DNA of 64,000 nt, taken from the NCBI GenBank assembly GCA_035541435.1, contig DATKNL010000002.1:67962-131961 (forward strand), in the 5' to 3' direction. Position 1 is the first letter of the stretch, and each line of letters starts with the position of its first letter. Below are positions 7,710 through 62,664 of the stretch, piece after piece. Made by a program: the position numbers and the translations under genes. Under the pieces are notes generated by a model. That model searched no databases. It worked only from the letters and a program-made list of their open reading frames with translations, and was not told the origin of the DNA. The stretch comes from Minisyncoccota bacterium. Its GTDB lineage: Bacteria; Patescibacteriota; Minisyncoccia; UBA6257; 2-01-FULL-56-20.

Positions 7710-8099
7710 ATGAGAACTGCCGTAGCAGGCGCCTTCTGGTTCCTGTGCGTCGTAATGACCATCGCCGCTTATGAAGACCCGGTCGGTTACGCGGGCTCAG
7801 CCATCGCCCTCGGCGCCATGGCACTCGTCTTCAACCTGGCCGCCGCAAGGATCCTCAGAAGCTATCCGTTCCCAATCGCGGTCCTCGCCGTGATCGGCGT
7901 CAGCGTCGTCAATGTGATGCTTAACTTGCACTACGGCCGCTATTTTGCGGAATTGAACATCCTCGGGCGCGCGGCATTCTCCCTGGTTGTTGCTTTGGCC
8001 AACGCGCTCGCCGTGGTCCGCATCATCGATTGGCTCATGAACCGCTTCGCCGACCCGGCCATGAGAAAAACTGGCGGCATCGACGTGAGCGGATTCTAG
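7710..8099 (+). CDS. Hypothetical small polytopic membrane protein
   Basis: 129-aa ORF with GGAGGA RBS 7 nt upstream; three or four hydrophobic helices. Confidence 0.5.
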   Translation: MRTAVAGAFWFLCVVMTIAAYEDPVGYAGSAIALGAMALVFNLAAARILRSYPFPIAVLAVIGVSVVNVMLNLHYGRYFAELNILGRAAFSLVVALANALAVVRIIDWLMNRFADPAMRKTGGIDVSGF

Positions 8100-8147
8100 G
8101 AGGCCGCCGGCATGGCTTTCCGCCGCCATTCACCATCAATAAAAATC

Positions 8148-8179
8148 AGCCGGGGCCCGCGCCTCGGCTTTTTTGTTTT
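8148..8179. terminator. Rho-independent terminator between convergent genes
   Basis: GC hairpin (AGCCG..CGGCT) followed by TTTTTTGTTTT, in the gap between genes ending at 8099(+) and 8195(-). Confidence 0.45.
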
Positions 8180-8194
8180 CAAAGAAAACGGGCA

Positions 8195-8818
8195 TCACAG
8201 CACCCGGCTTCGCGCGATATCGAACCATGACGGATCAACCTCGTCGAGCGCTTCGACAAGGCCGGGGCCGTCGATCAGTTCGAGCGGCAGGCCTTTCGCC
8301 CATGAGCGGGCGGCCGCCGTATAGCCCGCGGTCGTCACGAAAAATCCCTTGTCGGCCTTGACCTTCAACATGCTGCCATAGAGGTCGCGGATCGGGGGTT
8401 CCCCGATCTTCTTGTCCGCGCGGTAGTGCTTCACCTGCGCGACGGCGGTCGCGCCGTCTTTCTTAAGGACAAGATCGAGGCCGTGGTCCCCCGTCTTGCC
8501 GGTAACGGTGACGTCATATCCCCAATGCTCGAAAAGCCATCCGATCAGCTTTTCGAACGCGCGGTCGTCGATCGTCGCGAGATCGCTCATAGCGATGGCG
8601 GCAAGCCACAGGCTGCTCTGCCGGCGCTTCCTCCTGAAGACGCTCACGGCGACGGCGATAATCAGGACGGCAGCGAGGACCGCGAGCACCGTGACGATCG
8701 TCGCACCGCTCGGCTTGAAAACCACGAGGCCCGCCAGCACGACAAGCGCCGCGAGGACCGCGAGCGCGTTGCCCGGCGAGGACTGCTTGCGATAATACCG
8801 TCTGCGGCGGCGCGACAT
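8195..8818 (-). CDS. Membrane-anchored restriction-endonuclease-like (Mrr_cat domain) protein
   Basis: 207 aa. N-terminal Arg-rich segment plus TM helix, C-terminal Mrr catalytic-like region (WGYDVTVTGKTGDHGLDLV...QVKHY...GFFVTTAGYT). Confidence 0.6.
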   Translation of the reverse strand: MSRRRRRYYRKQSSPGNALAVLAALVVLAGLVVFKPSGATIVTVLAVLAAVLIIAVAVSVFRRKRRQSSLWLAAIAMSDLATIDDRAFEKLIGWLFEHWGYDVTVTGKTGDHGLDLVLKKDGATAVAQVKHYRADKKIGEPPIRDLYGSMLKVKADKGFFVTTAGYTAAARSWAKGLPLELIDGPGLVEALDEVDPSWFDIARSRVL

Positions 8819-8859
8819 GAGGTGTAGCGTTTAGTATACAAAATTCGACGATACTCAGT

Positions 8860-8888
8860 TTGACAACGTAGCTAGCCTATTATATAAT
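8860..8888 (+). promoter_or_regulatory. Consensus sigma-70 promoter TTGACA-N17-TATAAT for gene 8941
   Basis: Perfect -35 and -10 hexamers at 17-bp spacing in an AT-rich gap, followed by AAGGAGA RBS and ATG at 8941. Confidence 0.55.
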
Positions 8889-8940
8889 TAGCTCGGTATT
8901 TTGGAAATCGAAATCACTGCACAGACAAGGAGAAGAAGCG

Positions 8941-10779
8941 ATGTTTTACATCATGGTGTCGCTCGTGAGCGCGTTCGTCGGGGCTCTTCCTTTGCTTTTC
9001 AAACGGAAGATCAATGCCGCGATCGTGCAGGGTCTGATTACCGCGATCGTTGGATACTGCCTCATTTACCTCCTGGCTCCTTCGACGGCATATCCGCTGC
9101 TCGGGGCGCCTGGACTGCTGACGGTAATCTGGTGGGTCTTCGCCGCCGTCATAGATGGCTCGCAGGAGAACGAAGTCACCGCTCTTGTCGTAGTCCCGAT
9201 CTTCGGGATCATCCTTTATGCGGTCGTCGGCTTGTCCGGATGGGAAGCGTTTCGCGCAAGCGATTACGCCAACATGATGGGCTCGGTGGACGTGCGCGAA
9301 TGGACGCAGGATGTTCAACCCAAGGATCCTGCCCATATGCGCATGAGCACGAAAGAGAATGCCCTCTATCAGGCGAAGAAGGTCATGGGAAAGGATGGAG
9401 CCATCGGCAGCCAGTTCGAGATCAGCGAAGACAACATGACGCTCCAGATGATCCGCGGGGAACTCTGGTACGTCGTTCCACTGGATTATTCCGGGTTCGG
9501 CGTATGGATGAACTCTCGGGGAGTCCCGGGATACATCAAGGTTCATGCCGAGGATCCCCATCGGGAACCTGAGCTCGTAATACTGAAAGATGACGAGCTT
9601 ATGCACTACACGCCGGGTGCCTACTTTGGCAACGACTTAGAGCGGCACCTCCGGAATCGTGGCTATCTCAACAAGCTGCTTTCCGATTGGACCTTCGAGG
9701 TCGATGAGGACGGGCATGACTGGTGGGTGGTCACGGTTTCCGAACCGACCATCGCATGGTGGGGTGAGCGCGTTTCCGGCGTCGCGATCGTGAATCCGTC
9801 TACCGGCGATGACACGTTCTATCCGCTCGGGAAAGTTCCCGATTGGGTGGACCGAGTCATTCCTCAGCATATCGTGAAAGATTACCTTGCATGGCAAGGC
9901 GACCTGTCCGGAGGCTGGTGGAACAGCTGGTGGGGAGCCGTAAACCTCACGGAACCCGAGACGCCGAATCTCATCTATGGTTCCGGCGATCAGCCCGAAT
10001 GGGTGACCGGCATCACGTCTTCGAACGGCAAAGATGACTCGCTCGTGGCGTTGGTGTATACCAATTCACGAACCGGGAAATCTGTCCGTTATGTGATGAA
10101 GGGCGGAGGCACCGATACGGCCATCCTTGATGCCGTGAACAAGAACAGCCAGGTTCAGTTCAAGCACCTGCATGGCGTGGCGCCGCAGATCTACAACGTG
10201 TATGGTCAGCCGACGAGCGTCATCCCGTTGTTCAACGAAAGCCATTCGTACCAAGGCGTCGCCATGGTTCCCATCAACGACATCCAAACGGTGGCGGTGG
10301 GTGGCGACCAATATGAGGCGCTCCGTTCGTACGAACAGCTCCTCTCCGAGGCGGGCCAGCGCGTCGCGTTGGACAAAGAGCGCACCCTGCAAACCATCGA
10401 GGGGGTCGTCGACCGCTTTAGCGCGGAGGTTACGAGCAGCGGAGGTACGGTCTATTACCTTCACCTCCCTGGCATTTCGTGCCTCTTTACTGCCGGCGCC
10501 GGCGCATCAGCGAAGCTGCCGGTAACGAAAGAGGGCGATAAGGTGAAGATCGAGTTCTATGCATCGGACCGCGATGTGGTCCCGATCCATGGGTTCGATA
10601 ATCTTTCCCTTGTCCTCTCGGCCAGCAAAGTACAACAGCAGGTTCGCGCCGAAGTGAAGGAACGGCAAGGCACTCAGGAAGTTCGATCCGATACGCAGAC
10701 CGTCGTGAACCGGATCCAACAAATGTCGCCCGAGGATTTGCAAAAGCTGAAATCGCAAGTCCCTCCTCAGTCGCAGTGA
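8941..10779 (+). CDS. Hypothetical membrane-anchored extracytoplasmic protein (612 aa)
   Basis: Strong RBS. Three N-terminal TM helices then a large Trp-rich soluble domain. No recognizable catalytic motifs. Confidence 0.6.
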   Translation: MFYIMVSLVSAFVGALPLLFKRKINAAIVQGLITAIVGYCLIYLLAPSTAYPLLGAPGLLTVIWWVFAAVIDGSQENEVTALVVVPIFGIILYAVVGLSGWEAFRASDYANMMGSVDVREWTQDVQPKDPAHMRMSTKENALYQAKKVMGKDGAIGSQFEISEDNMTLQMIRGELWYVVPLDYSGFGVWMNSRGVPGYIKVHAEDPHREPELVILKDDELMHYTPGAYFGNDLERHLRNRGYLNKLLSDWTFEVDEDGHDWWVVTVSEPTIAWWGERVSGVAIVNPSTGDDTFYPLGKVPDWVDRVIPQHIVKDYLAWQGDLSGGWWNSWWGAVNLTEPETPNLIYGSGDQPEWVTGITSSNGKDDSLVALVYTNSRTGKSVRYVMKGGGTDTAILDAVNKNSQVQFKHLHGVAPQIYNVYGQPTSVIPLFNESHSYQGVAMVPINDIQTVAVGGDQYEALRSYEQLLSEAGQRVALDKERTLQTIEGVVDRFSAEVTSSGGTVYYLHLPGISCLFTAGAGASAKLPVTKEGDKVKIEFYASDRDVVPIHGFDNLSLVLSASKVQQQVRAEVKERQGTQEVRSDTQTVVNRIQQMSPEDLQKLKSQVPPQSQ

Positions 10780-22056: not shown

Positions 22057-22081
22057 CTCAAATAAAACAGCTCTTGAACGA

Positions 22082-22121
22082 GAATCGAACGAGCGGAGGG
22101 GTCGGGGAACCGCGGCCGGTT
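22082..22121 (+). repeat. tRNA-adjacent ~40-nt repeat, copy 1 (GAATCGAACGAGCGGAGGGGTCGGGGAACCGCGGCCGGTT)
   Basis: Near-identical (one extra G) to 58875-58915 downstream of tRNA-Gly. Begins 26 nt after the tRNA-Pro 3' end. Confidence 0.55.
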
Positions 22122-23049
22122 GCTGCTTCTGCGTCGCTTTTCGCGTATAATGAATCGCATGGATCCCATGACCGCAACCTATGTCGACCGGGCTCAGAAT
22201 GAGCTCACCGAGCACCTTGTCTATGGCAAGCTCGCCGCGCGCGAGAAGAACCCGCACAACCGCGCGCTCCTCGAACGGCTTTCGGCCTCCGAAAAGACGC
22301 ACTATGAGTTTTGGAAGACGCTCGCTCCCGAAGCCGAGCACGTGAAGCCGCGCAAAACGGGCCTCATCGGCATCCCCCTTTTGCGCTCGGCGCTCGGCAT
22401 CACCTTCGTCACGAAATTCCTCGAGGGCCACGAACGGGATGCGATCTCGACCTATCGCGAGATGCTGAAGACGATCGCCCCCGAGCACCGTCAGCGGCTC
22501 GAGGCGATCATCAAGGACGAGGAATCGCACGAGCAGGGGCTGCTCACCCAGCTCCAGGAGCGCCGCATCGCCTATATCGGCTTCATTGCGCTCGGCCTGT
22601 CGGACGCGATCGTCGAGATCACCGGCGTCCATGCCGGCTTCCTCGGCGTCACCGGCTCCACGCTCATCGCGGGCGTTTCGGGCATCATCGTCGGCTTCGC
22701 CGCCGCGATATCGATGGGATCGGCCGCCTATATCCAGGCCAAGCAGGATCCCGACAAATCCCCGGTCCCGTCCGCCCTATCCACCGGCCTCACCTATCTC
22801 GGATCGGTCATCATGCTCGCCCTCCCCTATTTCCTCATCCGCACCATGGTCGTGGCCTTCGTCATCTCGACGGGCATCGGCGTCCTGCTGCTCGCCGGGT
22901 TCATCTTCTTCAGCGCCGTGGTCTTCGACAAGCAGTTCTTCCGCGAGTTCGGCGAGTCGGTGGGTCTCATGCTCGGAACCGCCCTTGCGACCTACGTCCT
23001 CGGCACCGTCGTCGGATCGGTCTTCCACCTCAATCAGGCAAGCTTCTAA
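22120..23049 (+). CDS. Ferritin-like (rubrerythrin-type) domain fused to a VIT1/CCC1-family iron/manganese transporter domain
   Basis: N-terminal four-helix ferritin-like region (EKTHYEFW...EESHEQ), C-terminal polytopic VIT1-like region. True start probably an internal ATG (22150/22159/22168), since a TATAAT sits at 22145-22150. Confidence 0.7.
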   Translation: MLLLRRFSRIMNRMDPMTATYVDRAQNELTEHLVYGKLAAREKNPHNRALLERLSASEKTHYEFWKTLAPEAEHVKPRKTGLIGIPLLRSALGITFVTKFLEGHERDAISTYREMLKTIAPEHRQRLEAIIKDEESHEQGLLTQLQERRIAYIGFIALGLSDAIVEITGVHAGFLGVTGSTLIAGVSGIIVGFAAAISMGSAAYIQAKQDPDKSPVPSALSTGLTYLGSVIMLALPYFLIRTMVVAFVISTGIGVLLLAGFIFFSAVVFDKQFFREFGESVGLMLGTALATYVLGTVVGSVFHLNQASF

Positions 23050-37939: not shown

Positions 37940-38059
37940 TGGGTTGGTTTTTTTTGTTAATACGATGGTGGTTCCATTATATAACGTCCGGCTGCGAAAA
38001 ATATAGCATACCCGCGCGCGGATGCAGAGGGCGAAGGCAGCCGCGTTGCCCGGGCTTCA

Positions 38060-38088
38060 TTGAGAAAATCGCGCAGGGCAAGTATGAT
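38060..38088 (+). promoter_or_regulatory. Promoter TTGAGA-N17-TATGAT for DUF1653 gene
   Basis: Hexamers at 17-bp spacing, 18 nt upstream of ATG 38106. Confidence 0.45.
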
Positions 38089-38105
38089 GTCACAAAAAGA
38101 CCGCC

Positions 38106-38435
38106 ATGAACATTCCTTCGAAGGTGCCCTCCCCGGGGTTCTATTATCACTACAAGCACGACCCGGACGGCCCAATAAACAACTATGCCTATGAGGTCGT
38201 GGGCGTGGGATGCCACACCGAGGACGACTGCCGCCCCGAAGACGCGAATCTCGTGGTCTATCGCCCGCTCTACGAATCATCGGTCTATAAGGCCGGGAAG
38301 CTTTTCGACCTGCGCCCCCTTGAGATGTTCATGGAGGACGTGACGAAGGACGGCAAGACGTTTCCGCGATTCAGGAAAATCACCGATGCGTCGGTGATCG
38401 AGCGGCTTTCGGCGATCCAACGGCAGATGTATTAA
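38106..38435 (+). CDS. DUF1653-family protein
   Basis: GFYYHYKHDPDG...YAYEVVGVGCHTE...LVVYRPLY pattern of DUF1653. Confidence 0.7.
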   Translation: MNIPSKVPSPGFYYHYKHDPDGPINNYAYEVVGVGCHTEDDCRPEDANLVVYRPLYESSVYKAGKLFDLRPLEMFMEDVTKDGKTFPRFRKITDASVIERLSAIQRQMY

Positions 38436-38890
38436 CGATTCAACCGCCAAATTTCATAATTCAACACCGTTGCGAAAGACGACCAGAGCGCATAGGGCAC
38501 CATAAGCCATGCGGCCGCGGCATTGACTCCGGAAAATAGAACGACGGTTGTCACGATGAATATCAGAAGGACGACGAGTTCGACAAGCGCAGCGCCGAGG
38601 CGCTTTGCACCGAAAAACAAGGGCGTCCACAGGGCGTTGAGGATGAGCTGAACGACGAAAACGTCGAAGGCGGTTCCGCTCCCGCTTGTCCGGAACACGA
38701 GGTAGGCCGCGATCCCCTGCAGCGCGTAAAGGATCGTCCAGACTGGTCCGAAAACCCAGTTGGGTGGATTGAATGTCGGCTTTCTCAGCTTGGCGTACCA
38801 CGTCGGAATCGCGCGAACCGTAAAGAGGCTTCCGCCAACGCCCACCAGTTCGCACAACGCAATGAAGACGGCGAGCAGGAGCCAATTCAT
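38432..38890 (-). CDS. tspO: TspO/MBR (tryptophan-rich sensory protein) family
   Basis: 152 aa, five TM helices, conserved Trp/Pro pattern (WYAKLRKPTFNPPNWVFGPVWTILY). Confidence 0.85.
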   Translation of the reverse strand: MNWLLLAVFIALCELVGVGGSLFTVRAIPTWYAKLRKPTFNPPNWVFGPVWTILYALQGIAAYLVFRTSGSGTAFDVFVVQLILNALWTPLFFGAKRLGAALVELVVLLIFIVTTVVLFSGVNAAAAWLMVPYALWSSFATVLNYEIWRLNR

Positions 38891-39038
38891 GTATCAATTA
38901 TACTCCCGACTTCGGGGTTGTTCATCAAAAGAAAAGCCCGGAAAAGCAATTGACAAAGTCGATAAGATTTAGCATACTATTCCAGTCCGAGCGCACTCCA
39001 TAAAGGAGGCAGGATGGACGGAAAGAGAGTTCTTTACT

Positions 39039-39608
39039 ATGGCTGCAAGAAGTGATGTTGCGACGATGGTGCGTGGCATGGGGATGGGCATGAAAGTGCT
39101 CGACCTGCTCGTGAACGAAGCCGAGAAGCAGGGTGCGGACAAGGAGGCATTCGCCTTTTTGACCCGTCCGCGCTTCAAGGGAAATCTTGAAAAGATAGGG
39201 AAAGCTATTGCCGAGTGCGATTGGCGAATTCCCGCGAGCGAGATGCGCGCACTCGCGCGGAAACGCGAATCGGAAGAATACGGTCTCGACTCGGAAGCCG
39301 AAATTGAGCAGGCGGCAAACCTCTGGTGGTCGGGAACGTGCATTGATTTCGGGATCCCCTATGATCGGTATTGCCAAAATCCCAACCACGGCGATCCTGC
39401 GATTCTGCCCATTTTTCTGAAAGAGCTGGACGGAAAAGCAATGGAATACCCGCTTATCCTTTCGCCCTTCATCGGCAGCGAGCGCCGTTTCGTGGTTGTC
39501 GACTTCATCACGACCGAAGCGCTGTATCGCCCGGGCGATCGGATCGACATAAATCAAATCGACGCGCTTGCAGTTGCCGATTGTAAGTATTTCGATTTCG
39601 AGAAGTAA
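39039..39608 (+). CDS. Hypothetical protein in lower-GC island
   Basis: 189-aa ORF with local composition clearly more AT-rich than flanking DNA. No domain recognized. Confidence 0.45.
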   Translation: MAARSDVATMVRGMGMGMKVLDLLVNEAEKQGADKEAFAFLTRPRFKGNLEKIGKAIAECDWRIPASEMRALARKRESEEYGLDSEAEIEQAANLWWSGTCIDFGIPYDRYCQNPNHGDPAILPIFLKELDGKAMEYPLILSPFIGSERRFVVVDFITTEALYRPGDRIDINQIDALAVADCKYFDFEK

Positions 39609-39929
39609 TCGCTAACCAAGGCGCACGCCAGCTCATGTTGGACGTGCGTTTTTTTATATTTGTTTCAGAGTCCGTTCTTTCGTCGCTCCCATTATCCAGC
39701 GATATTTTTATTTCAGCAACATTACAAAACCACGACTTCCGGGGCAAACAAAAACAGCTCCATTTCTGAAGCTGTTTTCGGGAATTCGTACATGGTTGCG
39801 TCCCAACTCGACACCGTCTCAATGATTTTAGCGACCCATAATCTGAAGTCAAATTTGATTTAATTTAGATTTAATCTAACTTTTTTATCATGTTCGTCGT
39901 GGAACACCTGCAGATTTCCAGCATATGCT

Positions 39930-40610
39930 CTATTCCTTAATCATCTTCAAAAGCGCCTCCTTGGAAACCACTTTGCCATCTATGGCGATTTGGCCGGATA
40001 TTTCGTTAATGGCTTTCTCAATCTTCTCCATGCCCTTGTTTACCTTGGCCCGGATCAGCTCATCCACAATAAAGGTTTTCATTTCCTTTCCTTCCGCATA
40101 AGCTTTCTTCAACGCAGCATCCCGCTCTTTGGGCTTATATGTCAAAAGCTGATGCACCACCTTATTCCGCTGCTTGATGTAAGCGTCCAGCTTTTTATAG
40201 AGCGGTGCGTCAATGACATGCCCGATCAGAAGAAGCTCCAGTTGTTTCGATATCTGCCAGCGTTCAACACTTTTCGCAAGCTCCTTATTTCCCGCAAGGC
40301 CGTCCATGAAATGAATTGCAACGCATGTCTTTATCACGCCCTCAAACAGGCATGACTGGATAAGAAACGCCTCTAAAAATTGCCCCTGCTGATAAAAAGA
40401 TTCCGCTCGCGCTACTAGCTGGTCGTAGATCGCCTCCTCTTTTGGAATGCCTTGGTTGGCCATAACTTCATTATACTTGACCTCCTCCACCGGAACATTC
40501 TCTGCGACGTTTGCGCTACCGTGAGCTACCCGGCGTTCCATTTTGCAGTCCGCTACTGATCTATGTTTTTGATAAGACCTCACGCGATAGCGCAAAATAG
40601 CGCAGGACAA
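39930..40610 (-). CDS. Hypothetical all-alpha protein in lower-GC island; weak HEPN resemblance (single Rx4H match)
   Basis: KQRNKVVHQL matches the R-[N]-x3-H HEPN signature near a predicted C-terminal helix. Start uncertain (internal Mets at codon 24/50). Confidence 0.4.
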   Translation of the reverse strand: MSCAILRYRVRSYQKHRSVADCKMERRVAHGSANVAENVPVEEVKYNEVMANQGIPKEEAIYDQLVARAESFYQQGQFLEAFLIQSCLFEGVIKTCVAIHFMDGLAGNKELAKSVERWQISKQLELLLIGHVIDAPLYKKLDAYIKQRNKVVHQLLTYKPKERDAALKKAYAEGKEMKTFIVDELIRAKVNKGMEKIEKAINEISGQIAIDGKVVSKEALLKMIKE

Positions 40611-55514: not shown

Positions 55515-58412
55515 TTACGGAAGCGGCGGAACCGCGAGGTTGAGCGCCGGGCACTCGATCAGGTTGATCCACCGCTGGGTCGTCTTATAGACGTAGTCCG
55601 TCGGTGTGAATTCCGTCTCGAGGCCGTAGGGCAGCCAGGGGCGAAGCACCTCGATGTGGTACTTCACCTGGAACTGGTCGACGGCTGCGATCGTGTCCGA
55701 ACCGTAATACCCGGTGACCGGAAGGCCGATGCCGAGGTTCTGGTTCAGGAAGAGTTGCAGCTTGCGGACTTCGGCGGGATCGTTCAGATCCTTGCGGATC
55801 GGATGGATGTACTGCGTGAGATAGATGCCGCAGCTTTCGCCGAGGACCTGGCCGGTCGTACTCGTGCTCGTGCCGAGCACCTGTCCGCCGCCACCGCCAC
55901 CGCCGTTGCCGCCGCCTCCACCTCCGCCTCCGCCACCTCCGCCGCCGGTGCCGCCCGCGACCGTGATGGTCGAGGACGCCGTGTTGTTGCCGACGTTCGG
56001 GTCAAGGACCCTGTTCGATTCGCCGACATGCGCGACGTTCGTGATCGCCTGTCCCGCGGTCCCCTGGTTGACCGTCGCCGTGATGACGAGGGTCACCTGG
56101 TGGCCGCTCGCGAGGTCGCCGATCGCCCACGCGCCCGTCGAGGTCGCGTACGTCCCCTGCGACGTGGTCGCCGAGACGAGCGTGAGCCCCGCGGGAAGCG
56201 TGTCGGTCGCGACTGCGCCGAACGATTCCGAAGGACCGAGGCCGGACACGGTCACCGTATAATGGATCGTCGATCCCTCATTCGGTGTCGCGTTGTCCAC
56301 GGATTTCGCGATGCCGATTTCGGCCGTGGGGATTCCTCCCCCGCCGCCACCGCCACCGCCTCCCCCGCCGCCGCCTCCACCACCGCCACCTCCGCCTCCG
56401 CCGCCATTCGTCTGAATGACGATCGAAACCGACGAGGTGTTGTTGCTCATGTTGGCGTCGGTCGAGCTGGACGACTCGCCGATCGTGGCGACGTTCGTGA
56501 TCGTCTGTCCCGCCGTCCCGGCATTGACCGTCGCCGTGATGACGAGGGTCGCCGTCGCGTTCGCGGGCATGTCGCCCACGACCCACGCGCCCGTCGAGGT
56601 CGCGTACGTCCCCTGCGACGTGGTCGCCGAGACGAACGTGAGCCCTGCGGGAAGCGTGTCGGTCGCGACGACCCCGGTCGAGGTCGCGGGACCGAGCGCC
56701 GAAGCGGCGAGCGTGAAGTTCACGGTGTCGCCCTCTTTCGGATTGCCGTTGTCGACGGTCTTCATGATCGCGATGTCGGCAGTCGTGGTCGGCGTTCCGC
56801 CGCCACCCCCGCCGCCCCCGCCACCGCCGCCGTTATTCGACTGCACGGCGAGGGTCGCGCTTGCGCTGTCGTTCGCGCCGTTCGAATCGTGCACGCCCGA
56901 GCCCTGCGAGACGGTCGCGGTGTTCACGATCGTCTGGCCCGCCGTCCCCGACGCCACGGTAGCCGTGATCGTGAGGGTGAGGCTGGAGCTCGGCGTGAGC
57001 GTCCCGATCGTCCAGAGGCCGGTCGAGCTCGCGAACGAGCCGCCGGTCGCGCTGGCCGAGACGAAGTCGAGCCCTGCGGGGAGCGTGTCGCTTGCGACGA
57101 CGCCCGGCGCGTTGCTCGGACCCGCGTTCGAGACGGTCACCGCGTAATGCACGGTGTCGCCCTCCTTCGGGTTCGCGTTGTCGACGGACTTCGCCACCGC
57201 GAGGTCGTCGGTCTGCTGGCCGACGGCCGGGTTCACGCTGATCGTCACGCTCGCGCTATCGTTGCCGATCGTCGCGGTGTTCGTGATCTGCATGCCCGAC
57301 TCGTTTCCGTTGATCTTCGCCGTGATGACGAGGTCGGCCGTCGCGCCCGAGGCGATGTCGCCGATCGTCCACGCGCCCGTCGAGGAGGCATAGCTGCCTT
57401 CCGACGAGCTGGCGCTGACGAACGTGAGGCCCGCGGGCATGACGTCGGTTGCCACGACGCTTGTCGCGTCGACGGCAGCCGTGTCGGTCACCGTGACCGT
57501 GTAATGGATCACGTCGCCCGCGAACGGGGTGCCGTTGTCGACGGTCTTCGTGAGCGTGAAGCTCGGCGTGGTCGAGGTCGACGTTCCGCCGCCCCCGCCT
57601 CCGCCGTTGCCGCCGCTCCCCGATCCGCAGCCTGCGCTCGCGGAGCCGGAGCCGCTCGAGCTTGCGCTCGAACTGGCGCTCGAACCCGTTCCCGACGACG
57701 AGCTGGTGCTCGTCGTGTTCGAGCTCGATGAGCTCGACGCGGTACTGGTGCACGAACCCGAGCCGGAGCTCGAGGACGACGAGGACGATCCGGAACCGGA
57801 ACCCGATCCCGAACCTGAGCTCGTCGAGCTCGAATTGCCGCCGTTGCCCGTCGTTCCCGTCGTGCTGCCCGAACCCGAACCGCTTGACGCGGTCGAGCTT
57901 GCGCTCGAACCCGAGGTTGAACCCGAGGACGAGGAGCTCGACGCGTTGCCATCCGTTCCGGACGCGCTTGCGGTGCTCGAGCTGTTCCCCGAAGCCGACC
58001 CGGAGGTCGTGCTCGAGGCGCTGCCGTTTCCGGCTGAGCTCGAGGTGCTCGAGGAATTCGAGGCGCTCGCGGTGCCCGACGTCGATGACGCCGATGTGCC
58101 GCTCGGGCCCGAAGAGCTCGACGCGGTGCTCGAAGCGCTCGCGCTCGAACTCGAACCGGAGCTCGAGCTTGAGGACGAGGTGGAACTCGTGTTCCCGCCC
58201 GTGCCCGAACTCGATGCCGCGCTCGAACCGTTATCCGATGTCAAGCTCGTCGCCGAACCCGCCACGGTCTGGCTCACAGCCTGGTCCGTAACGCCTGCCG
58301 CGCGCGCGACTGAAAGGTGACCGGCAACGGTGACTGCGGCGAACGCCCCCATGAGGAAGACTCCCTCGATGACGGCGATGCCGATAAGCAATTTCTTTAT
58401 TGCCTGTATCAT
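55515..58412 (-). CDS. Large secreted cell-surface protein: signal peptide, ~260-aa Ser/Thr/Gly-rich low-complexity region, 4x DUF11 repeats separated by poly-Gly linkers, C-terminal peptidoglycan-binding-like domain
   Basis: DUF11 signature repeated four times (TVDNG.P..GD...Y...V...GP....V.A.D.LPAGL.FVSA..S.G.YA.STG.W.IG....). Gly runs of 12-25 residues encoded by GGN/CCN DNA tracts. C-terminus VRKLQLFLNQNLGIGLPVTGYYGSDTIAAVDQFQ resembles PG_binding_1. Confidence 0.8.
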   Translation of the reverse strand: MIQAIKKLLIGIAVIEGVFLMGAFAAVTVAGHLSVARAAGVTDQAVSQTVAGSATSLTSDNGSSAASSSGTGGNTSSTSSSSSSSGSSSSASASSTASSSSGPSGTSASSTSGTASASNSSSTSSSAGNGSASSTTSGSASGNSSSTASASGTDGNASSSSSSGSTSGSSASSTASSGSGSGSTTGTTGNGGNSSSTSSGSGSGSGSGSSSSSSSSGSGSCTSTASSSSSSNTTSTSSSSGTGSSASSSASSSGSGSASAGCGSGSGGNGGGGGGGTSTSTTPSFTLTKTVDNGTPFAGDVIHYTVTVTDTAAVDATSVVATDVMPAGLTFVSASSSEGSYASSTGAWTIGDIASGATADLVITAKINGNESGMQITNTATIGNDSASVTISVNPAVGQQTDDLAVAKSVDNANPKEGDTVHYAVTVSNAGPSNAPGVVASDTLPAGLDFVSASATGGSFASSTGLWTIGTLTPSSSLTLTITATVASGTAGQTIVNTATVSQGSGVHDSNGANDSASATLAVQSNNGGGGGGGGGGGGTPTTTADIAIMKTVDNGNPKEGDTVNFTLAASALGPATSTGVVATDTLPAGLTFVSATTSQGTYATSTGAWVVGDMPANATATLVITATVNAGTAGQTITNVATIGESSSSTDANMSNNTSSVSIVIQTNGGGGGGGGGGGGGGGGGGGGGGGGIPTAEIGIAKSVDNATPNEGSTIHYTVTVSGLGPSESFGAVATDTLPAGLTLVSATTSQGTYATSTGAWAIGDLASGHQVTLVITATVNQGTAGQAITNVAHVGESNRVLDPNVGNNTASSTITVAGGTGGGGGGGGGGGGGNGGGGGGGQVLGTSTSTTGQVLGESCGIYLTQYIHPIRKDLNDPAEVRKLQLFLNQNLGIGLPVTGYYGSDTIAAVDQFQVKYHIEVLRPWLPYGLETEFTPTDYVYKTTQRWINLIECPALNLAVPPLP

Positions 58413-58743: not shown

Positions 58744-58814
58744 GCGGGTATGGTTCAGTGGCAGAACGCGACCTTCCCAAGGTTGAGATACGGGTTCGAT
58801 TCCCGTTACCCGCT
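58744..58814 (+). tRNA. tRNA-Gly (anticodon CCC)
   Basis: Manual fold: acceptor GCGGGUA/UACCCGC, D-arm GUUC-AGUGGCA-GAAC, anticodon loop UUCCCAA giving CCC, T-arm ACGGG-UUCGAUU-CCCGU, discriminator U. Confidence 0.85.
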
Positions 58815-58825
58815 CATATAAAAAA

Positions 58826-58856
58826 GAGGAACCTCGGAAAGAGGTTCCTCTTTTTT
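58826..58856 (+). terminator. Rho-independent terminator after tRNA-Gly
   Basis: Perfect 10-bp stem GAGGAACCTC/GAGGTTCCTC, GGAAA loop, TTTTTT. Confidence 0.8.
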
Positions 58857-58874
58857 ATATTCAGTTGGCGACGG

Positions 58875-58915
58875 GAATCGAACGAGCGGAGGGGGTCGGG
58901 GAACCGCGGCCGGTT
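58875..58915 (+). repeat. tRNA-adjacent ~40-nt repeat, copy 2 (contains perfect GGGGAACCG-CGGC-CGGTTCCCC hairpin)
   Basis: GAATCGAACGAGCGGAGGGGGTCGGGGAACCGCGGCCGGTT matches 22082-22121 apart from one extra G. Confidence 0.55.
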
Positions 58916-59031
58916 CCCCGTGTCGGAGGGCCGCCGTCTTCGGCGGCAGTGCGGCACCGAGGGTGCCGCAGGCGCAGCGAGGCCGGAGGCCGAGCGAGCA
59001 GTGAGATTCCCGCCGCATCGCTTGACCGACC

Positions 59032-59060
59032 AACGGTCAGATACTATGATATTCGCGGCA
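59032..59060 (+). promoter_or_regulatory. Promoter TTGACC-N17-TATGAT for gene 59078
   Basis: Hexamers at 17-bp spacing, 17 nt upstream of a GGAGGA-ATG start. Confidence 0.4.
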
Positions 59061-59077
59061 TTGCGGGAGGATATCGC

Positions 59078-59431
59078 ATGTATCATTGGATGATCGTCTG
59101 CCTGGGGGTATCCAATATCTCTCTCGATCACGCGATGCGAGAGTCCCTTATGGCCGCAGTGGAAGAAATGGCATTATCTTCCAAAACCCAACACTCTTTC
59201 AAAAGCGATACGGGAGAAGGCCAGGTCCGCAAGGTGAGCGACTTCGTATCATTCTTCGGCGAAGGCGGCCCGTGCTTCGCGGCTGAAGTCGACACTGATC
59301 GCGGGACCGGAAAAGCATCCTTCATCGTGCCCCAACGATATATCGACGCTGTTGCTGCGGGAGCTAAGTTCGATGGCGGGTTTTCGCTCGAACTTGATCC
59401 CAAGCAATCCAGACGGGCACAGTGGAATTAA
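59078..59431 (+). CDS. Hypothetical protein (117 aa) at the edge of the lower-GC island
   Basis: Start reassigned to ATG 59078 with GGAGGA RBS. The ORF-track N-terminal extension overlaps the repeat/hairpin region and is Arg/Gly-rich noise. Confidence 0.45.
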   Translation: MYHWMIVCLGVSNISLDHAMRESLMAAVEEMALSSKTQHSFKSDTGEGQVRKVSDFVSFFGEGGPCFAAEVDTDRGTGKASFIVPQRYIDAVAAGAKFDGGFSLELDPKQSRRAQWN

Positions 59432-59526
59432 CAGAATCGTTTTCCGGACGAGATCGTGACGGGAATCTTCCAATAAGCCGCGACGGAGATGTCGCGGCTT
59501 TTTTTATCAAAAGCGCCGATCCGACA

Positions 59527-62500
59527 TCATCGATTCAGCACCCTTACCACCCCCTCGTTTGCGTCAACCTCAATCCAGTCGCCGTCATTTATCACGTCGG
59601 TAGCTATTCTGGTGCCGATAACGCAAGGCTTCTTAAACTCCCTCGCAATAATGGCGGCGTGACTCGTGACTCCGCCTTCGTCGGTGACGAAAGCGGCCGA
59701 TCTTTTCATCGCCGGCAGATAGTCGGGCATCGTCATGGGACTAATCAGGATCTCGCCCTCTTTCAAGGTCGGCACATCCTTAAGGCTCATGATTTTTCTT
59801 GCAATGCCGCGAACTTTACCCCGGTGAGCGGATTGGCCCGAAAACTCCTTGATAGCGTCAGGCGCCTCAGAAACAATGGCGATATTAAATTTTTCTTCCA
59901 TTTCCCTAACACCCGCACCGACGAATAATGTTGCATCCGCAAAGGAATAGCTCTTCGTCCTGGCCTTCAATTCCCTCAATGAGGGCAGCTCCTTGGAATT
60001 GATTTCTTCGATGGTCAAAGCCGCCGAGAGCTTGCCTAGTTTTGGGAATATTTTAAGCAGTGAATTTCTTATCACGATGTCGCCATTCGGCACCATCGTT
60101 TCAGTGGAAACCCTAGCCCTTTTAACAATACGAAACGCTTTGCTGGTCGAACTTGCCATTTCCATCGTCCACCATACCGATTCGAACCAGGCCCACGCAT
60201 CCTCCAGATGAGCCATGAAGCTGACCAGCGTCTTATGGTTCAGCGTTCTTTTCCCTTTCCAAATTGGCTCGATATCCTTCGCCCTTTTATAAAATTCTCT
60301 TACGCATTTCTCGACGAACTTTTTATCCCTTTTCATGGACCTTCTCAGTTCGCCTTTTATCCAATCGATCCCTGCCTCATCGAGATAATCAGTAACCAGG
60401 CCATTCTCTCTGACGAAGATTTGATAAGGCAGCCTTGGATTGGTTCTGGCCGTCCATTGCCTTGGATTGGTAGTTTCAGCTCGGCACCACATCTGAATGA
60501 TCGGCAGGCAAAAATCTCGGACATAGGATTTGACATAGGTGCCTCTGATTTTCTTGCCCGATCCCGAGACGCTCGATCCCGCTATCCTTCTAACCCTTCC
60601 CTTGTCTGCATCGACCTCCACCATGTCGCCGTCCTTAAAGAATTCTGTCGCTATCTTCGTTCCGATGATGCAGGGTTTTCTAAGTTCCCTGGCAACGATT
60701 CCAGCGTGACACGTTATTCCACCTTCATCCGTGACAAAAGCCAGCGCCTTCTTCATAGCCGGCAAGAAGTCCGGCGTAGTCATAGGAGATACGATCACGT
60801 CGCCTTCTTTGACTTCCCCAACCTGATCCCGTCGCCGGAGTATCTTCACGCGGCCAACCACTCTGCCTTTTTGGGCTATTTCTCCGGCAATGACATTAGG
60901 ATCATTGATAGCGATGGATTCCTTTTCAAATGAGAATTGAGGATTTACATTTTCAAAGTCAGACAAGGTGCCAATAAAATGGTTTTTACCCTGAACAATA
61001 AGCGAGTGCCGCTTGCGGTCCTTCAGTGTCCTGTTGGCAGGAATCTTCCTAAGTTCGCTGATAAAAATCGCGGTTTCATAATGTTTTGCCCGCGGATATA
61101 AAGCGGAGATGCTGTCCATTATTACGATGTCATTTCGCGCAAAGAACTCATCCTTATTGCGCATCGCAAGAGCCTTTTTTCTGATGGGTTTTGGCGTTTT
61201 GTCGTCAACGGCGGAATAGTAATAAGCAATGAAGTAAGGGATTGCTTCCTTGGAAAGCTCAATGAGTTTAATGAGCTTACTCATCGGAAGCGGCGCCATC
61301 TTCCACAGTTCATGAATCGCATCGAGCCTGATTCTATATTCCCCGAGGATCTTGTCGATAAATTTCGGATTTCTTCTGTTTTCCTTCAAAATGGCATTTT
61401 CCAACCATTCGGTGGCTTTTACGTTCTCCCAAATTTCGATGCTTCCCTGATTCATGTAATGGATAATCCCAGGCAGATAAGGGTTCTTCCAACCAAATTC
61501 TCCTTCGACACCGTCAGAACATCCGAATGCCCATATCTCCTGCATGATATAGGTGGTATCACGGGTATATATCTTTTTGAACTTTATAGGATCGTCTTTT
61601 TCCTTCTTTGGCCAAGACAACGTCGTAATGGGCCGCGACTGCACGATATAAAATTTTCCCTTTTCCAAGGCCCATTCAATATCACACGGAAAACCATATT
61701 GGTCTTCGATGCGAAGAATCAATTTCGACAACTCGAGGATTTGCTTGTCGGGAAGAGCTTGCTTACCTGCTTTCGATTTGGAAATATCTTTCCACTCGTT
61801 TTCGCCCCTCGGCAAACGATAGAGTCCTCTGCCTTTTTTCGGGATTATCCGCTCAATAATTTTTCTTGGTTCTTTTTCGATTACATAGCTATCAGGAGTG
61901 ACTTGGCCGGAAACGATTGCTTCGCCCAACCCATAGCTTGCCTCGATGATAAGCTGGTTGCGATCCTGCGTTACTGGATGGACCGAAAAGGCGACGCCCG
62001 AAACCTCGCTCTCGACCATCTTTTGAACGACCACGGCGACGGAAATTTTTTCGGCGCGAAGCCCCTTCTCGAAGCGGTAGAAAATGGCGCGGGGCGTAAA
62101 GAGTGACGCCCAGCAGCGTTTCACATTTTCTAAAAGATTGCCTCCAGTGGTATTTAAAAAGCTATCCAGCTGCCCCGCCCACGCCGCCGATGAGCCGTCC
62201 TCGGCCGTTGCGCTGGAACGCACCGCGACGAATTTAGCTCCCAATTTCTTGAAGTTTCTTTTGATCTCCATGGCGACGTCCTCTGGCATTTCAGTGCCGA
62301 TAATGATCGCCCTGATTTCCTCGGATGCCCGCTCGACGCTGGCCGTGTTTCGATGCTTTATCTTATGCAAAATGGCATCTATGTCAGCTGCAATCCCCTG
62401 CTCTTCAATGAACTTTTCGAAGGCTGTCGAAAGAATGACGAAACCGGACGGAACCGGAAGGCCCGCTTGCGTCATTTCCCCAAGTGACGCTCCCTTGCCA

Positions 62501-62556
62501 CCAGCAAGCGCGACATCCTTTTTGCTCAACCCTTCAAAGTCCCGCGAGAATTCCAT
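59527..62556 (-). CDS. PEP-synthase / rifampin-phosphotransferase-like protein: N-terminal PPDK_N ATP-grasp nucleotide-binding domain plus two PEP-utilizing-enzyme mobile (phospho-His swivel) domains; no PEP/pyruvate TIM-barrel domain
   Basis: 1009 aa. N-terminus (ALAGGKGASLGEMTQAGLPVP...VAVRSSATAEDG...) is PpsA/PPDK_N-like. Swivel 1 ~aa 575-680 (GDVIVSPMTTPDFLPAMKKALAFVTDEGGITCHAGIVARELRKPCIIG) and swivel 2 ~aa 905-1009 (GEILISPMTMPDYLPAMKRSAAFVTDEGGVTSHAAIIAREFKKPCVIG), each preceded by a helical region. The gene is visibly AT-richer than the genome background. Confidence 0.75.
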   Translation of the reverse strand: MEFSRDFEGLSKKDVALAGGKGASLGEMTQAGLPVPSGFVILSTAFEKFIEEQGIAADIDAILHKIKHRNTASVERASEEIRAIIIGTEMPEDVAMEIKRNFKKLGAKFVAVRSSATAEDGSSAAWAGQLDSFLNTTGGNLLENVKRCWASLFTPRAIFYRFEKGLRAEKISVAVVVQKMVESEVSGVAFSVHPVTQDRNQLIIEASYGLGEAIVSGQVTPDSYVIEKEPRKIIERIIPKKGRGLYRLPRGENEWKDISKSKAGKQALPDKQILELSKLILRIEDQYGFPCDIEWALEKGKFYIVQSRPITTLSWPKKEKDDPIKFKKIYTRDTTYIMQEIWAFGCSDGVEGEFGWKNPYLPGIIHYMNQGSIEIWENVKATEWLENAILKENRRNPKFIDKILGEYRIRLDAIHELWKMAPLPMSKLIKLIELSKEAIPYFIAYYYSAVDDKTPKPIRKKALAMRNKDEFFARNDIVIMDSISALYPRAKHYETAIFISELRKIPANRTLKDRKRHSLIVQGKNHFIGTLSDFENVNPQFSFEKESIAINDPNVIAGEIAQKGRVVGRVKILRRRDQVGEVKEGDVIVSPMTTPDFLPAMKKALAFVTDEGGITCHAGIVARELRKPCIIGTKIATEFFKDGDMVEVDADKGRVRRIAGSSVSGSGKKIRGTYVKSYVRDFCLPIIQMWCRAETTNPRQWTARTNPRLPYQIFVRENGLVTDYLDEAGIDWIKGELRRSMKRDKKFVEKCVREFYKRAKDIEPIWKGKRTLNHKTLVSFMAHLEDAWAWFESVWWTMEMASSTSKAFRIVKRARVSTETMVPNGDIVIRNSLLKIFPKLGKLSAALTIEEINSKELPSLRELKARTKSYSFADATLFVGAGVREMEEKFNIAIVSEAPDAIKEFSGQSAHRGKVRGIARKIMSLKDVPTLKEGEILISPMTMPDYLPAMKRSAAFVTDEGGVTSHAAIIAREFKKPCVIGTRIATDVINDGDWIEVDANEGVVRVLNR

Positions 62557-62664
62557 GTTGAACTTATCTTAGGCCATCCTTGGTGATTTTCCAAAACTCC
62601 GGCTTCGAAGGCCGCGGCGTGATCAAATTAAAAGCACCTCCCCTTGGGAAGGTGCTTCGTCCGT

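Follow-up and report, generated by a model that had tools for sequence, protein, structure and literature searches.

The window, a 64,000-nucleotide stretch of contig DATKNL010000002.1 from a Minisyncoccota bacterium, contains a gene whose 1009-residue product we read as a His-swivel dikinase of modular build within the PpsA/PPDK/RPH superfamily. Its domains run A-H1-S1-H2-S2, it would serve two acceptors, and its gene was probably acquired horizontally by this high-GC Paceibacterota genome. Taken as a whole, we give this reading a probability of roughly 0.6. The coordinates of the gene, its domains and the neighboring elements are collected in Table 1; an identical protein (P0001) is found on a record from a Candidatus Paceibacterota MAG.

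Table 1. Features of the kinase locus, in window coordinates.
Feature	Positions	Strand	Basis and remarks
tRNA-Gly, anticodon CCC	58744-58815	+	ARAGORN; Rfam tRNA 68.8 bits
Perfect 20-bp inverted repeat	58816-58860 (arms 58816-58835, 58841-58860)		Repeat search, 100% complementary; directly 3' of tRNA
tRNA trailer, GC-rich structured element of ~135 nt	58861-58995		Alignments with L111, L090 and L138
Sigma-70-like promoter match, TTGACC-17-TATGAT, 10/12	59022-59050	+	Consensus scan, pattern match alone; upstream of the small ORF
Small ORF h117, 117 aa	59078-59431	+	Convergent with the kinase gene
Intrinsic-terminator-like hairpin, 11 bp, 7 G-C pairs, T-run	59475-59500	+	Between the convergent ORF and kinase genes
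Two-module dikinase CDS, 1009 aa + stop	59527-62556	-	ORF call
Swivel phospho-His domain 2 (S2), aa 906-1009	59530-59841	-	Pfam PF00391 at 932-1002; PDB alignment
H2 acceptor-side domain, aa 673-905 (putative)	59842-60540	-	Module alignment, subtype scoring, residue mapping
Swivel phospho-His domain 1 (S1), aa 556-660	60577-60891	-	Pfam PF00391; PDB alignment to PEP synthase swivel
H1 acceptor-side domain, aa 321-555 (putative)	60892-61596	-	Mixed alpha/beta + helical bundle; R332, R466, E501, R514 conserved
ATP-grasp nucleotide-binding domain (A), PPDK_N, aa 1-320	61597-62556	-	Pfam PF01326, residues 16-320, E 6e-100
Kinase upstream intergenic region	62557-62664	-	Sequence scan

The product has a single ATP-grasp domain followed by two modules, each made of an H domain of about 235 residues and a swivel. 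The initial annotation had described a PPDK_N domain and two His swivels that keep the catalytic histidine (TCH and TSH), with no TIM barrel. This was borne out by a Pfam scan of the 1009-aa product, which found no PEP-utilizers_C TIM barrel, and by a check of the residues, His617 in GGITCH (codon at 60706-60708) and His966 in GGVTSH (codon at 59659-59661). Both histidines are retained, and a His-swivel phosphotransferase with an RPH-type domain order, as had also been proposed, is supported. In the family alignment K21, R113, T136 and H617 are invariant, and the first three appear to correspond to the RPH catalytic residues K22, R117 and T136 (PMC4844700), a correspondence read from where they fall within the GGKG and VRSSATAED motifs and not from an alignment with RPH. 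The catalytic His is kept in all 288 swivel domains of the 120 best homologs, with the motif GGxx[STC]H in 284 of them and a variant motif in the other 4. Over 128 H domains the conserved charged residues are R466 (99%), R514 (98%), E501 (95%) and R332 (88%), whose equivalents in H2 are R815, R866, E851 and R680.

The two modules align over 335 residues with 31% identity (E 2e-53), so the duplication takes in the helical part besides the swivel. To this extent the duplicated module that had been described stands, but not as an internal duplication. Module 2 scores as a distinct subtype (519 versus 37 bits), the H1 and H2 subtypes are found in either order among homologs, and the domains preceding the swivels (X) fall into at least three remotely homologous classes (hhalign 95-97%). 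These comparisons point to an old paralogous subtype that has been shuffled among proteins and not to a recent event within this one. The architecture is also less unusual than was first thought, as 104 of the 120 best homologs carry two to four swivel modules (one swivel in 16, two in 41, three in 62 and four in 1). By its homologs the kinase can be assigned to a large family, mainly of CPR (candidate phyla radiation) bacteria and DPANN archaea, with a layout of one ATP-grasp and 1-4 modules. The best full-length homolog has 50% identity. Stand-alone H+S proteins of about 340 aa dominate the representative search, L169 has a split operon in which an ATP-grasp gene is followed by an H+S gene and then a further H module, and at three other loci (L005, L008 and L171) stand-alone modules adjoin multi-module genes. 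In CPR/DPANN genomes the H+S cassette stands by itself, has a separate gene for the ATP-grasp as its neighbor, or is fused behind a single ATP-grasp in one to four copies, which are of several subtypes. It is an autonomous evolutionary unit and probably a functional one. The genomic context of the family's kinase loci showed no consistent partner gene; His_Phos_1, HAD phosphatases and TrmB regulators recur at some of them only.

By analogy with RPH and HpeHI, the single N-terminal ATP-grasp domain would bind ATP and pass the beta-phosphate to a swivel histidine, His617 or His966, with release of AMP and Pi. Each swivel, moving on flexible linkers, would then bring its phosphate to an acceptor held on the H domain immediately N-terminal to it, where the R/R/E/R residues (R332/R466/E501/R514 in H1 and R680/R815/E851/R866 in H2) could form a second phosphotransfer site. 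A precedent for such a site is the Arg666-Glu667 block in the acceptor domain of RPH (PMC4844700). Since H1 and H2 are divergent subtypes, the enzyme would most likely phosphorylate either two distinct acceptors or a single one at two sites or in two steps, and small molecules (metabolites or xenobiotics) are the most likely candidates. Neither sequence nor fold search found any similarity between the H domain and the rifampin-binding domain of RPH, and the putative acceptor-binding role is therefore suggested by architectural position and the conserved charged residues. The H domain had no match to any Pfam family or PDB entry, and no annotated or solved relative was found. The AF2 model has a mean pLDDT of 87.5, with low confidence only at residues 120-125 and in the linkers at 316-320 and 660-665; its pTM of 0.44 means that the relative placement of the domains is not predicted.

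The alternative that fares best is a macromolecular target, with the H domains as docking modules. The enzyme would then regulate a protein, as VadK may do, or act on a polymer, as glucan water dikinase does. The fold matches of H1 are helical bundles only, of a kind typical of protein-protein interaction domains, and nearby metabolic partner genes are not conserved. Precedents in the superfamily would be VadK, listed as a kinase evolved from PPDK, glucan water dikinase (PMC13553574) and PTS enzyme I, whose swivel was matched in both PDB sequence and fold searches. However, the R/R/E/R set in a compact 235-aa alpha/beta-plus-bundle domain is more suggestive of a site for a small ligand or phosphoryl group than of a surface for docking, the many subtypes, up to four per protein, resemble substrate-specific cassettes, and no carbohydrate-binding or known protein-interaction domain was detected. 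We regard a macromolecular target as unlikely, if worth keeping in mind.

The second part of our reading, that the kinase gene was acquired horizontally, probably together with the adjacent small ORF, draws on composition and synteny. GC falls to 0.43-0.55 from about 59.3 to 62.6 kb, compared with a window mean of 0.62, and the kinase gene itself has a GC of 0.484 against 0.628 in 20 kb of flanking DNA, a deficit of -0.144. The comparison with the core genome that had been suggested gave a kinase GC3 of 0.56 against 0.87-0.92 in core genes. The low-GC island that had been placed directly after tRNA-Gly is real as a drop in GC, but a 20-bp hairpin and a native element of about 135 nt intervene, and the block is essentially one gene with an adjoining ORFan and no multi-gene island. 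The donor was probably a CPR/DPANN organism of lower GC (about 0.4-0.5); the closest partial homologs (60-61% identity) lie on contigs of 0.39-0.44 GC.

The 3' side of tRNA-Gly(CCC) faces the acquired DNA. The inverted repeat next to the tRNA looks like a bidirectional terminator-like hairpin. The trailer behind it has three hairpins in which the genomes differ by compensatory changes, matched no Rfam family at threshold, and was found by nhmmer in L111, in L138 and at 22077-22124 of the window after tRNA-Pro. Being conserved in relatives, the trailer is native; it marks the limit of the native DNA, which extends about 180 nt beyond the tRNA, and is separate from the kinase system. In the relative L090 the backbone LepA-DivIC-tRNA-Gly-surface protein-CAP-DnaG-RpoD is contiguous, unlike in the kinase genome, where DivIC and tRNA-Gly are about 12.5 kb apart. 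This extra segment includes a native-looking transaldolase and Carb_kinase (GC3 ~0.9) and is therefore not a single island. The tRNA-Gly copies of four relatives (L090, L105, L111 and L112) are 94-99% identical, variable content adjoins the same tRNA in relatives, and in L105 it is adjoined by a large serine recombinase. The kinase gene sits in a variable region 3' of tRNA-Gly(CCC). Horizontal acquisition beside a tRNA hotspot is favored by composition and by the synteny of relatives, but no integrase, att direct repeat or mobility gene was found at the kinase locus itself.

Against acquisition it could be argued that the gene is native and vertically inherited, and that its low GC comes from amino-acid or codon constraints of the family or from an assembly chimera. 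The missing integration signs and the native housekeeping genes in the extra segment fit this, as does the slightly lower GC of the gene relative to its flanks in several other genomes (-0.02 to -0.045). The range over 11 other family loci is -0.045 to +0.02, however, and the deficit seen here is at least three times larger and strongest at synonymous sites. In addition, the kinase is missing from the syntenic site in all of 80 relatives, each surveyed over the 10 kb upstream of DnaG; the collection of 5.8 billion proteins holds no close ortholog; and the contig is assembled identically in two records, possibly from the same reads. Vertical descent seems improbable to us, a little more so than a macromolecular target.

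The small gene reported beside the kinase exists and is called in the source record (VMT99_00880, 113 aa in the NCBI version), but no link to the kinase family was seen. Its codon usage is atypical like that of the kinase (GC3 0.58), its only match among the 5.8 billion proteins was itself, Pfam, NCBIfam, PHROG and PADLOC gave no match, and it is unrelated to the small genes adjoining other kinases of the family; by these searches it classes as an ORFan. On the other side of the kinase gene, a consensus scan of the upstream intergenic region found no sigma-70-like promoter. In this region, at 62637-62651, the preceding gene has a terminator-like hairpin, so the kinase gene is probably monocistronic.

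Among known systems the two-component small-molecule dikinases HpeHI, CreHI and phenylphosphate synthase PpsAB, in which a separate ATP-grasp component charges in trans a component made of an acceptor domain and a swivel His (PMC12167813), offer a close parallel. This layout is echoed by the split operon of L169 and by the H+S proteins that stand alone, and the crystal structure of HpeI (9goj) strongly matches the kinase ATP-grasp. The kinase differs in that the components are fused and the acceptor-plus-swivel unit is present twice, in the much smaller size of that unit (about 340 aa, HpeH being 71 kDa), in an H domain without detectable homology to HpeH, and in a locus without aromatic-catabolism context. 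The PTS (enzyme I/HPr/EII) is a conceptual analogy only, with a swivel-type phospho-His carrier and one energy-coupling module that feeds several substrate-specific ones; its donor is PEP and not ATP, its carriers are distinct proteins, and the sequence relation covers only the swivel domain. These systems also bear on the possibility that phosphate runs serially from the ATP-grasp through S1 and S2 to one acceptor, instead of along parallel arms with their own H domains. In the PTS, where enzyme I has the swivel fold, phosphate is as a rule relayed from His to His, and HpeH alone catalyses substrate-to-substrate phosphotransfer (PMC12167813). Yet each swivel has an X domain of its own in front of it, H+S units that stand alone and proteins with a single module are complete in themselves, and the variable order of modules speaks against an ordered relay, which leaves us with little expectation of one.

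The best Foldseek match of the whole protein is the rifampin phosphotransferase RPH-Lm (5hv1, E 3.9e-36); PEP synthase (2ols, 6e-25) and PPDK (about 1e-12 to 1e-16) come after it. The likeness to RPH that had been pointed out thus holds for the fold and the order of domains (5HV1/5FBS; NCBIfam NF041857), with ATP-grasp, acceptor domain and C-terminal swivel, no TIM barrel, and conserved Arg and Glu in the acceptor-side domain; the dikinase logic (ATP to AMP, Pi and phospho-acceptor) is proposed for the kinase by analogy. It does not extend to the helical region, since the rifampin-binding domain is about 430 aa in three subdomains and, by sequence and fold search, unrelated to the H domain, and RPH has one acceptor-plus-swivel module where the kinase has two. 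Because of this, rifamycin or another antibiotic as substrate is only a guess. A resistance enzyme of the RPH type, with two modules that act to inactivate one antibiotic or two, would fit the structural match, the 406 bits for RIF_Ptrans_rph in NCBIfam, the 'rph-like' genes reported in CPR resistome surveys (PMC8651080) and the phosphotransferase activity that distant RPH clades keep according to the RPH authors (PMC4844700), but we think it quite improbable. The kinase scores under every PpsA and RPH equivalog cut-off, and far under for RPH.

Strictly speaking, the kinase is neither PEP synthase nor RPH; most likely it works as a dikinase of the RPH type that has two acceptor sites. That it is a canonical PEP synthase or PPDK, serving central carbon metabolism and having a C-terminal domain that has degenerated or been replaced, is very improbable: the PpsA equivalogs are the top NCBIfam matches (554 and 527 bits), PEP synthase 8a8e is the closest PDB sequence (E 8e-101), the swivelling-His mechanism is shared, and many sources label relatives 'phosphoenolpyruvate synthase/pyruvate phosphate dikinase', but both cut-offs (598 and 739.75) are missed, the PEP/pyruvate TIM barrel is absent, the PDB sequence matches are limited to ATP-grasp and swivel, and the domains follow the order A-X-S-X-S as against A-S-TIM.

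The 1009-residue dikinase is encoded by a gene that is an ordinary member of an uncharacterised family, and the family is the object of interest. The initial annotation had described a tRNA-Gly followed by a drop in GC, and a protein with a PPDK_N ATP-grasp domain, two swivel domains that both keep the catalytic His and no TIM barrel, and this description was accurate. Pfam searches place PPDK_N (PF01326) at residues 16-320 with an E-value of 6e-100 and find two PEP-utilizers (swivel) domains, which bears out both domain calls by HMM, while the PEP-utilizers_C TIM barrel is without a match in the kinase. The catalytic histidines are H617 (GGITCH, in TDEGGITCH) and H966 (GGVTSH, in TDEGGVTSH), and the swivel motif T/S-x-x-G-G-x-x-x-H is present. 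A family alignment of 34 sequences shows no variation at K21, R113 and T136, which appear, by motif position and not by alignment to rifampin phosphotransferase (RPH), to correspond to the catalytic residues K22, R117 and T136 of that enzyme (PMC4844700). When residues 321-662 are compared to residues 663-1009, 335 positions align at 31% identity (E 2e-53), thus the repeat unit is the whole module of a ~235-residue domain and its swivel.

Coordinates of the features at the kinase locus (nucleotides in the window, or residues of the kinase where marked aa)
Feature	Position	Strand	Remarks
tRNA-Gly(CCC)	58744-58815	+	Rfam 68.8 bits
Perfect 20-bp hairpin (58816-58860), then conserved element of ~135 nt	58861-58995		3' of tRNA-Gly; native DNA
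h117 (small ORF, 117 aa)	59078-59431	+	promoter-like site and strong terminator; atypical codon usage like the kinase gene
Kinase ORF	59527-62556	-	1009 aa
ATP-grasp domain (A)	aa 1-320
Acceptor-side domain of module 1 (H1)	aa 321-555
Swivel domain of module 1 (S1)	aa 556-660		followed by the second acceptor-swivel unit

The known enzyme that comes closest to the kinase in overall fold is RPH, as the initial annotation had proposed, and part of that resemblance stands. RPH has the same order of ATP-grasp, acceptor domain and swivel His, with the kinase repeating the acceptor-swivel unit once, and in a Foldseek search of the PDB with the whole kinase the first match is Listeria RPH (5hv1, E 3.9e-36), followed by PEP synthase (2ols, 6e-25) and PPDK (1e-12 to 1e-16). 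The model used for this search, made with AlphaFold2 from the 34-sequence alignment, has a mean pLDDT of 87.5, with low confidence at residues 120-125 within the ATP-grasp and in the linkers 316-320 and 660-665 and nowhere else; its pTM of 0.44 means that the domains are well defined and their mutual arrangement is not. The part that does not stand is the acceptor side. The three-subdomain rifampin-binding domain of RPH (~430 residues, with conserved RIF-contact blocks) was not detected in the kinase, and the RPH equivalog cut-offs are missed by far (406.5 against 999 for NF041857 and 286.9 against 1700 for NF000283), so the kinase fails membership of RPH. The other identity, a canonical PEP synthase (PpsA) with a degenerate C-terminal domain, shares the N-terminal PPDK_N ATP-grasp, and the ATP-grasp and swivel are closest in sequence to PEP synthase, but the C-terminal PEP/pyruvate-binding TIM barrel of PpsA (PEP-utilizers_C) is not in the kinase and both PpsA cut-offs are missed (554.1 against 598 for NF005057 and 527 against 739.75 for TIGR01418), so that the kinase fails membership here as well. 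The PDB and NCBIfam matches of the kinase are confined to the ATP-grasp and the swivel. The kinase is predicted to work most like RPH, HpeHI and other small-molecule dikinases.

The best 120 homologs are named from candidate phyla bacteria (CPR: Paceibacterota, Parcubacteria, Moranbacteria, Buchananbacteria and the Patescibacteria group) and from DPANN archaea (Nanoarchaeota, Woesearchaeota and Diapherotrites). Mapping the domains of the kinase on these 120 proteins gives one N-terminal ATP-grasp with one, two, three or four swivels in 16, 41, 62 and 1 of them, and the catalytic His is kept in 288 of 288 swivels. The same layout as in the kinase (A-H1-S1-H2-S2) is also found elsewhere at 42-50% identity, including in a Nanoarchaeota archaeon (protein P0009). 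Among the regions that precede the swivels, which we call X, at least three classes can be told apart by sequence, with ~238, ~379 and ~249 residues. Compared profile to profile, the classes are related with 95-97% probability when the alignments are large, whereas hhalign with two smaller curated ones (A3 and A4) gives just 33%, thus the homology of the classes is probable and not certain. Both X regions of the kinase belong to the 238-residue class, H, and are of different subtypes, with profiles that score ~520-530 bits against themselves and ~37 bits against each other. The order of the subtypes varies in the homologs (1-2 in 10, 2-1 in 6, 2-2 in 3 and 1-1 in 1), often with other classes mixed in. 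Taken with the subtype scores, this indicates that module 2 is an old paralogous cassette and not the product of a recent internal duplication, and we replace the internal duplication of the initial annotation with this view. In the open-access PMC and bioRxiv literature we found neither multi-swivel dikinases nor this CPR-DPANN family described. Against that literature two things are new, an architecture of several cassettes in which a single ATP-grasp is joined to as many as four swivel arms, and a superfamily of unannotated acceptor domains that is concentrated in CPR and DPANN.

Modelled alone, H1 reaches a pLDDT of 93.3 and a pTM of 0.89 and consists of an alpha/beta element and a helical bundle. 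This fold has no Foldseek match (best E 0.65), and neither the H class nor the 379-residue class gave a profile match to any RPH chain or Pfam family. The acceptor-side domain is thus an unannotated family in which no relative has a solved structure, and it cannot be recognised as the rifampin-binding domain. The alignment of the H domains has no conserved stretch of 7-10 columns; conservation over 128 domains is seen at R466 (99%), R514 (98%), E501 (95%) and R332 (88%), with R680, R815, E851 and R866 as the module-2 counterparts of R332, R466, E501 and R514. RPH has an Arg-Glu pair in its acceptor domain that the second phosphotransfer cannot do without and that is kept even in distant clades (PMC4844700). 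No alignment to RPH block 9 was possible for the R/R/E/R residues of the H domain; by analogy it is plausible that they would be the functional counterpart of this pair.

An exhaustive search with H1 alone against 1.84 billion representative proteins gave 200 clusters at E<=1e-3, the majority of them proteins of 335-350 residues with an N-terminal H and space for one swivel. At one locus from another genome (L169) an ATP-grasp-only gene is followed after 14 nt by a gene for a 341-residue H1-type domain with swivel and then by a further H-type module gene, an arrangement that is a split version of the fused kinase, and stand-alone X plus swivel genes adjoin multi-module genes at the loci L005, L008 and L171. 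These split and stand-alone genes are organised like the characterised two-component systems HpeHI, CreHI and PpsAB, in which the ATP-grasp is a protein of its own that acts in trans to charge the swivel His on its acceptor-binding partner (PMC12167813). The existence of both fused and split forms suggests that a single ATP-grasp is able to supply several cassettes, whether in cis or in trans. A dense cluster of family genes from one CPR genome lies at 4265-20860 of L005 (JGI Ga0645779_00060, a 901-kb contig), downstream of mur/ftsW cell-wall genes. It holds three stand-alone X plus swivel genes (573, 626 and 375 residues), a 1619-residue three-module protein and a second protein of ~2300 residues with PPDK_N and PEP-utilizers domains, interspersed with phosphatase genes (HD and His_Phos_1) and one rve transposase gene.

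Gene context of the family is not conserved across genomes, and the neighbours are instead housekeeping genes, such as SMC and RNase R at L002 and a ribosomal-protein/adk/map cluster at L007. Occasional neighbours are His_Phos_1 or HAD phosphatases (L004, L005, L006) and TrmB regulators (L004, L171, L172). The TrmB and phosphatase genes lie at L004 12455-13216 and 13273-13884, L171 275-1039, L172 5640-5888, and L006 7205-7855, 12296-12886 and 13286-13924. Their recurrence, at three loci each, could hint at a link to the handling of sugars or phospho-metabolites, in numbers too small to call, and as conserved partners both were rejected because the recurrence is too sporadic. We likewise rejected a role in a defence system, since PADLOC gave no defence-system match for the kinase and three neighbours and the PHROGs match was to an Xre-type HTH gene only.

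In the mechanism that we propose, the ATP-grasp domain would phosphorylate the swivel His with release of AMP and Pi, and each swivel would take the phosphate to an acceptor held by its own H domain. Given two different H subtypes, this would mean two acceptors or two steps on one. Small-molecule acceptors are most likely, macromolecular targets are possible, and rifamycin specifically is unlikely. For the family a broader reading is conceivable, to which we give a probability of about 0.4, in which CPR and DPANN would possess a modular phosphorylation system, new to the literature, where one ATP-grasp charging domain serves a varying set of interchangeable cassettes, a PTS-like, ATP-driven hub that would have spread horizontally. 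Each cassette would be an acceptor-binding domain of novel fold with its own phospho-His swivel arm, and the acceptor-binding domains would form at least three remotely related classes with many subtypes. The cassettes would either stand fused, up to four in a row, or be separate genes charged in trans, and would have been spread by horizontal transfer between two domains of life. If this is true, organisms of minimal metabolism could use phosphorylation to trap, activate or inactivate a range of compounds, whether scavenged or hostile.

CPR and DPANN account for a large part of the diversity of microbes, and their members are host-dependent with tiny genomes. Several large copies of the family are kept in such genomes, thus the family likely matters to their lifestyle. 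Current labels of the family are "PEP synthase/PPDK", "rifampicin phosphotransferase" and "PEP/pyruvate-binding domain-containing protein", which can mislead by giving false gluconeogenesis calls in metabolic reconstruction and false rph calls in resistome surveys. Treating the acceptor domain and swivel as a shuffled cassette behind one ATP-grasp provides a model for a dikinase with several substrates that is concrete and can be tested, and the new domain family, defined with its conserved R/R/E/R site, can be used in structural and substrate-screening work. A dikinase whose single nucleotide-binding domain bears two to four swivelling arms would be a mechanistic novelty in an enzyme class that is otherwise well studied.

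A foreign origin of the kinase gene is supported by its composition, and synteny agrees. The GC content is 0.43-0.55 over ~59.3-62.6 kb against a window mean of 0.62, and the gene has a GC of 0.484 against 0.628 in its flanks, as compared to differences of -0.045 to +0.02 between gene and flanks at 11 homologous loci. GC3 is 0.56 for the kinase gene and 0.58 for h117 versus 0.87-0.92 for DivIC, transaldolase, CAP, DnaG and RpoD. An identical protein is on record from a Candidatus Paceibacterota MAG; apart from it, the closest homologs of the kinase in 5.8 billion proteins (60-61% identical over partial length, 50% at full length) lie on contigs of 0.39-0.51 GC. Relatives were found by a DnaG-based scan of GTDB species genomes (Paceibacterota, with DnaG 39-77% and RpoD up to 96% identical), and in this comparison of related genomes, a check that the initial annotation had suggested, no kinase lies within 10 kb upstream of DnaG in any of the 80 relatives' loci. 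A metagenome scan by the transaldolase neighbour returned loci just 57-70% identical and non-syntenic, and so, unlike the DnaG scan, is uninformative on close relatives.

The tRNA-Gly island of the initial annotation survives in its atypical composition and in its absence from the corresponding locus of these relatives, and not in an integrase or att repeat. No integrase or recombinase is found in 23 kb around the kinase on the source contig, which was read to 8.5 kb past the window end, no phage or mobility gene at the kinase locus, and no second copy of the tRNA-Gly 3' end as an att site within 23 kb with up to 3 mismatches, nor any relevant repeat family. The low-GC block lies on the 3' side of tRNA-Gly, with ~180 nt of native conserved DNA (58816-58995) between the two. 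In a relative (L090) the order is LepA, DivIC, tRNA-Gly after <0.7 kb, surface protein, CAP, DnaG and RpoD; in the window DivIC and tRNA-Gly are ~12.5 kb apart, and this extra 12.5-kb segment also carries housekeeping genes of native composition. The foreign segment is best delimited to ~59.0-62.6 kb, that is h117 and the kinase gene, with terminator-like hairpins on both sides. The 3' flank of tRNA-Gly is variable, with EF-G in L111 and a large serine recombinase in L105. The latter, encoded at 104-1750 of L105 (DATKNI010000021.1), has 548 residues with Resolvase, Recombinase and Zn_ribbon_recom domains, and its gene runs precisely up to the 3' terminus of the tRNA-Gly(CCC) ortholog. The contig breaks off 100 bp upstream of the gene, short of the element itself. 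The arrangement suggests that a serine-recombinase element integrates at tRNA-Gly(CCC) in the lineage of the kinase. The kinase locus offers a clean example of probable single-gene horizontal acquisition at a tRNA-flanking hotspot in a Paceibacterota lineage. The EF-G (fusA-like) gene by tRNA-Gly in L111 (289-2565) is split over several overlapping ORFs, which could be frameshifts from either assembly errors or a pseudogene.

The GC-rich element that follows tRNA-Gly(CCC) in the window is also present there in L111 (3200-3320) and L138 (6779-6840), and its core of ~50 nt (ACGGGAATCGAACGAGCGGAGGGGGTCGGGGAACCGCGGCCGGTTCCCC) occurs after tRNA-Pro(GGG) as well (window 22077-22124). It starts with the reverse complement of a tRNA T-arm, and its hairpins carry compensatory changes between genomes, e.g. 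GGCACC...GGTGCC versus GGAACC...GGTTCC. This inverted tRNA-like fragment, which has no second copy in 23 kb, was considered as an att remnant and rejected, since it is part of a native conserved element found also after tRNA-Pro. Rfam gave only sub-threshold noise and no family at threshold, and ARAGORN found no tRNA or tmRNA in it. The element might be a small RNA not described so far, or else serve tRNA processing or termination in the Paceibacterota lineage of the kinase.

The small ORF h117 is an ORFan that matches only itself. It has no link to the small genes adjoining other kinases, which are also mutually unrelated, and nothing points to it working jointly with the kinase. On the other side, the kinase adjoins a five-gene run (62665-66600, equal to 5519-9892 of the source contig locus L001) without Pfam or PHROGs relatives except for one gene, a double-HTH Xre-type regulator with a GC3 of 0.65 and codon usage as atypical as that of the kinase gene. 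The remaining genes have an intermediate GC3 of 0.71-0.81, and the run may be older acquired DNA in the variable region of the kinase. Directly 5' of tRNA-Gly lies a gene for a 965-residue surface-type protein (55515-58412, - strand) with a Ser/Thr/Gly-rich N-terminal region, four DUF11-like repeats of ~140 residues split by poly-glycine runs of up to ~25 G, and a conserved C-terminal part; its orthologs in relatives have 1067-1294 residues and differ in repeat number. A further lower-GC patch lies at 38001-40000 of the window, where a 2-kb bin has 0.52 and the surroundings have 0.62-0.65.
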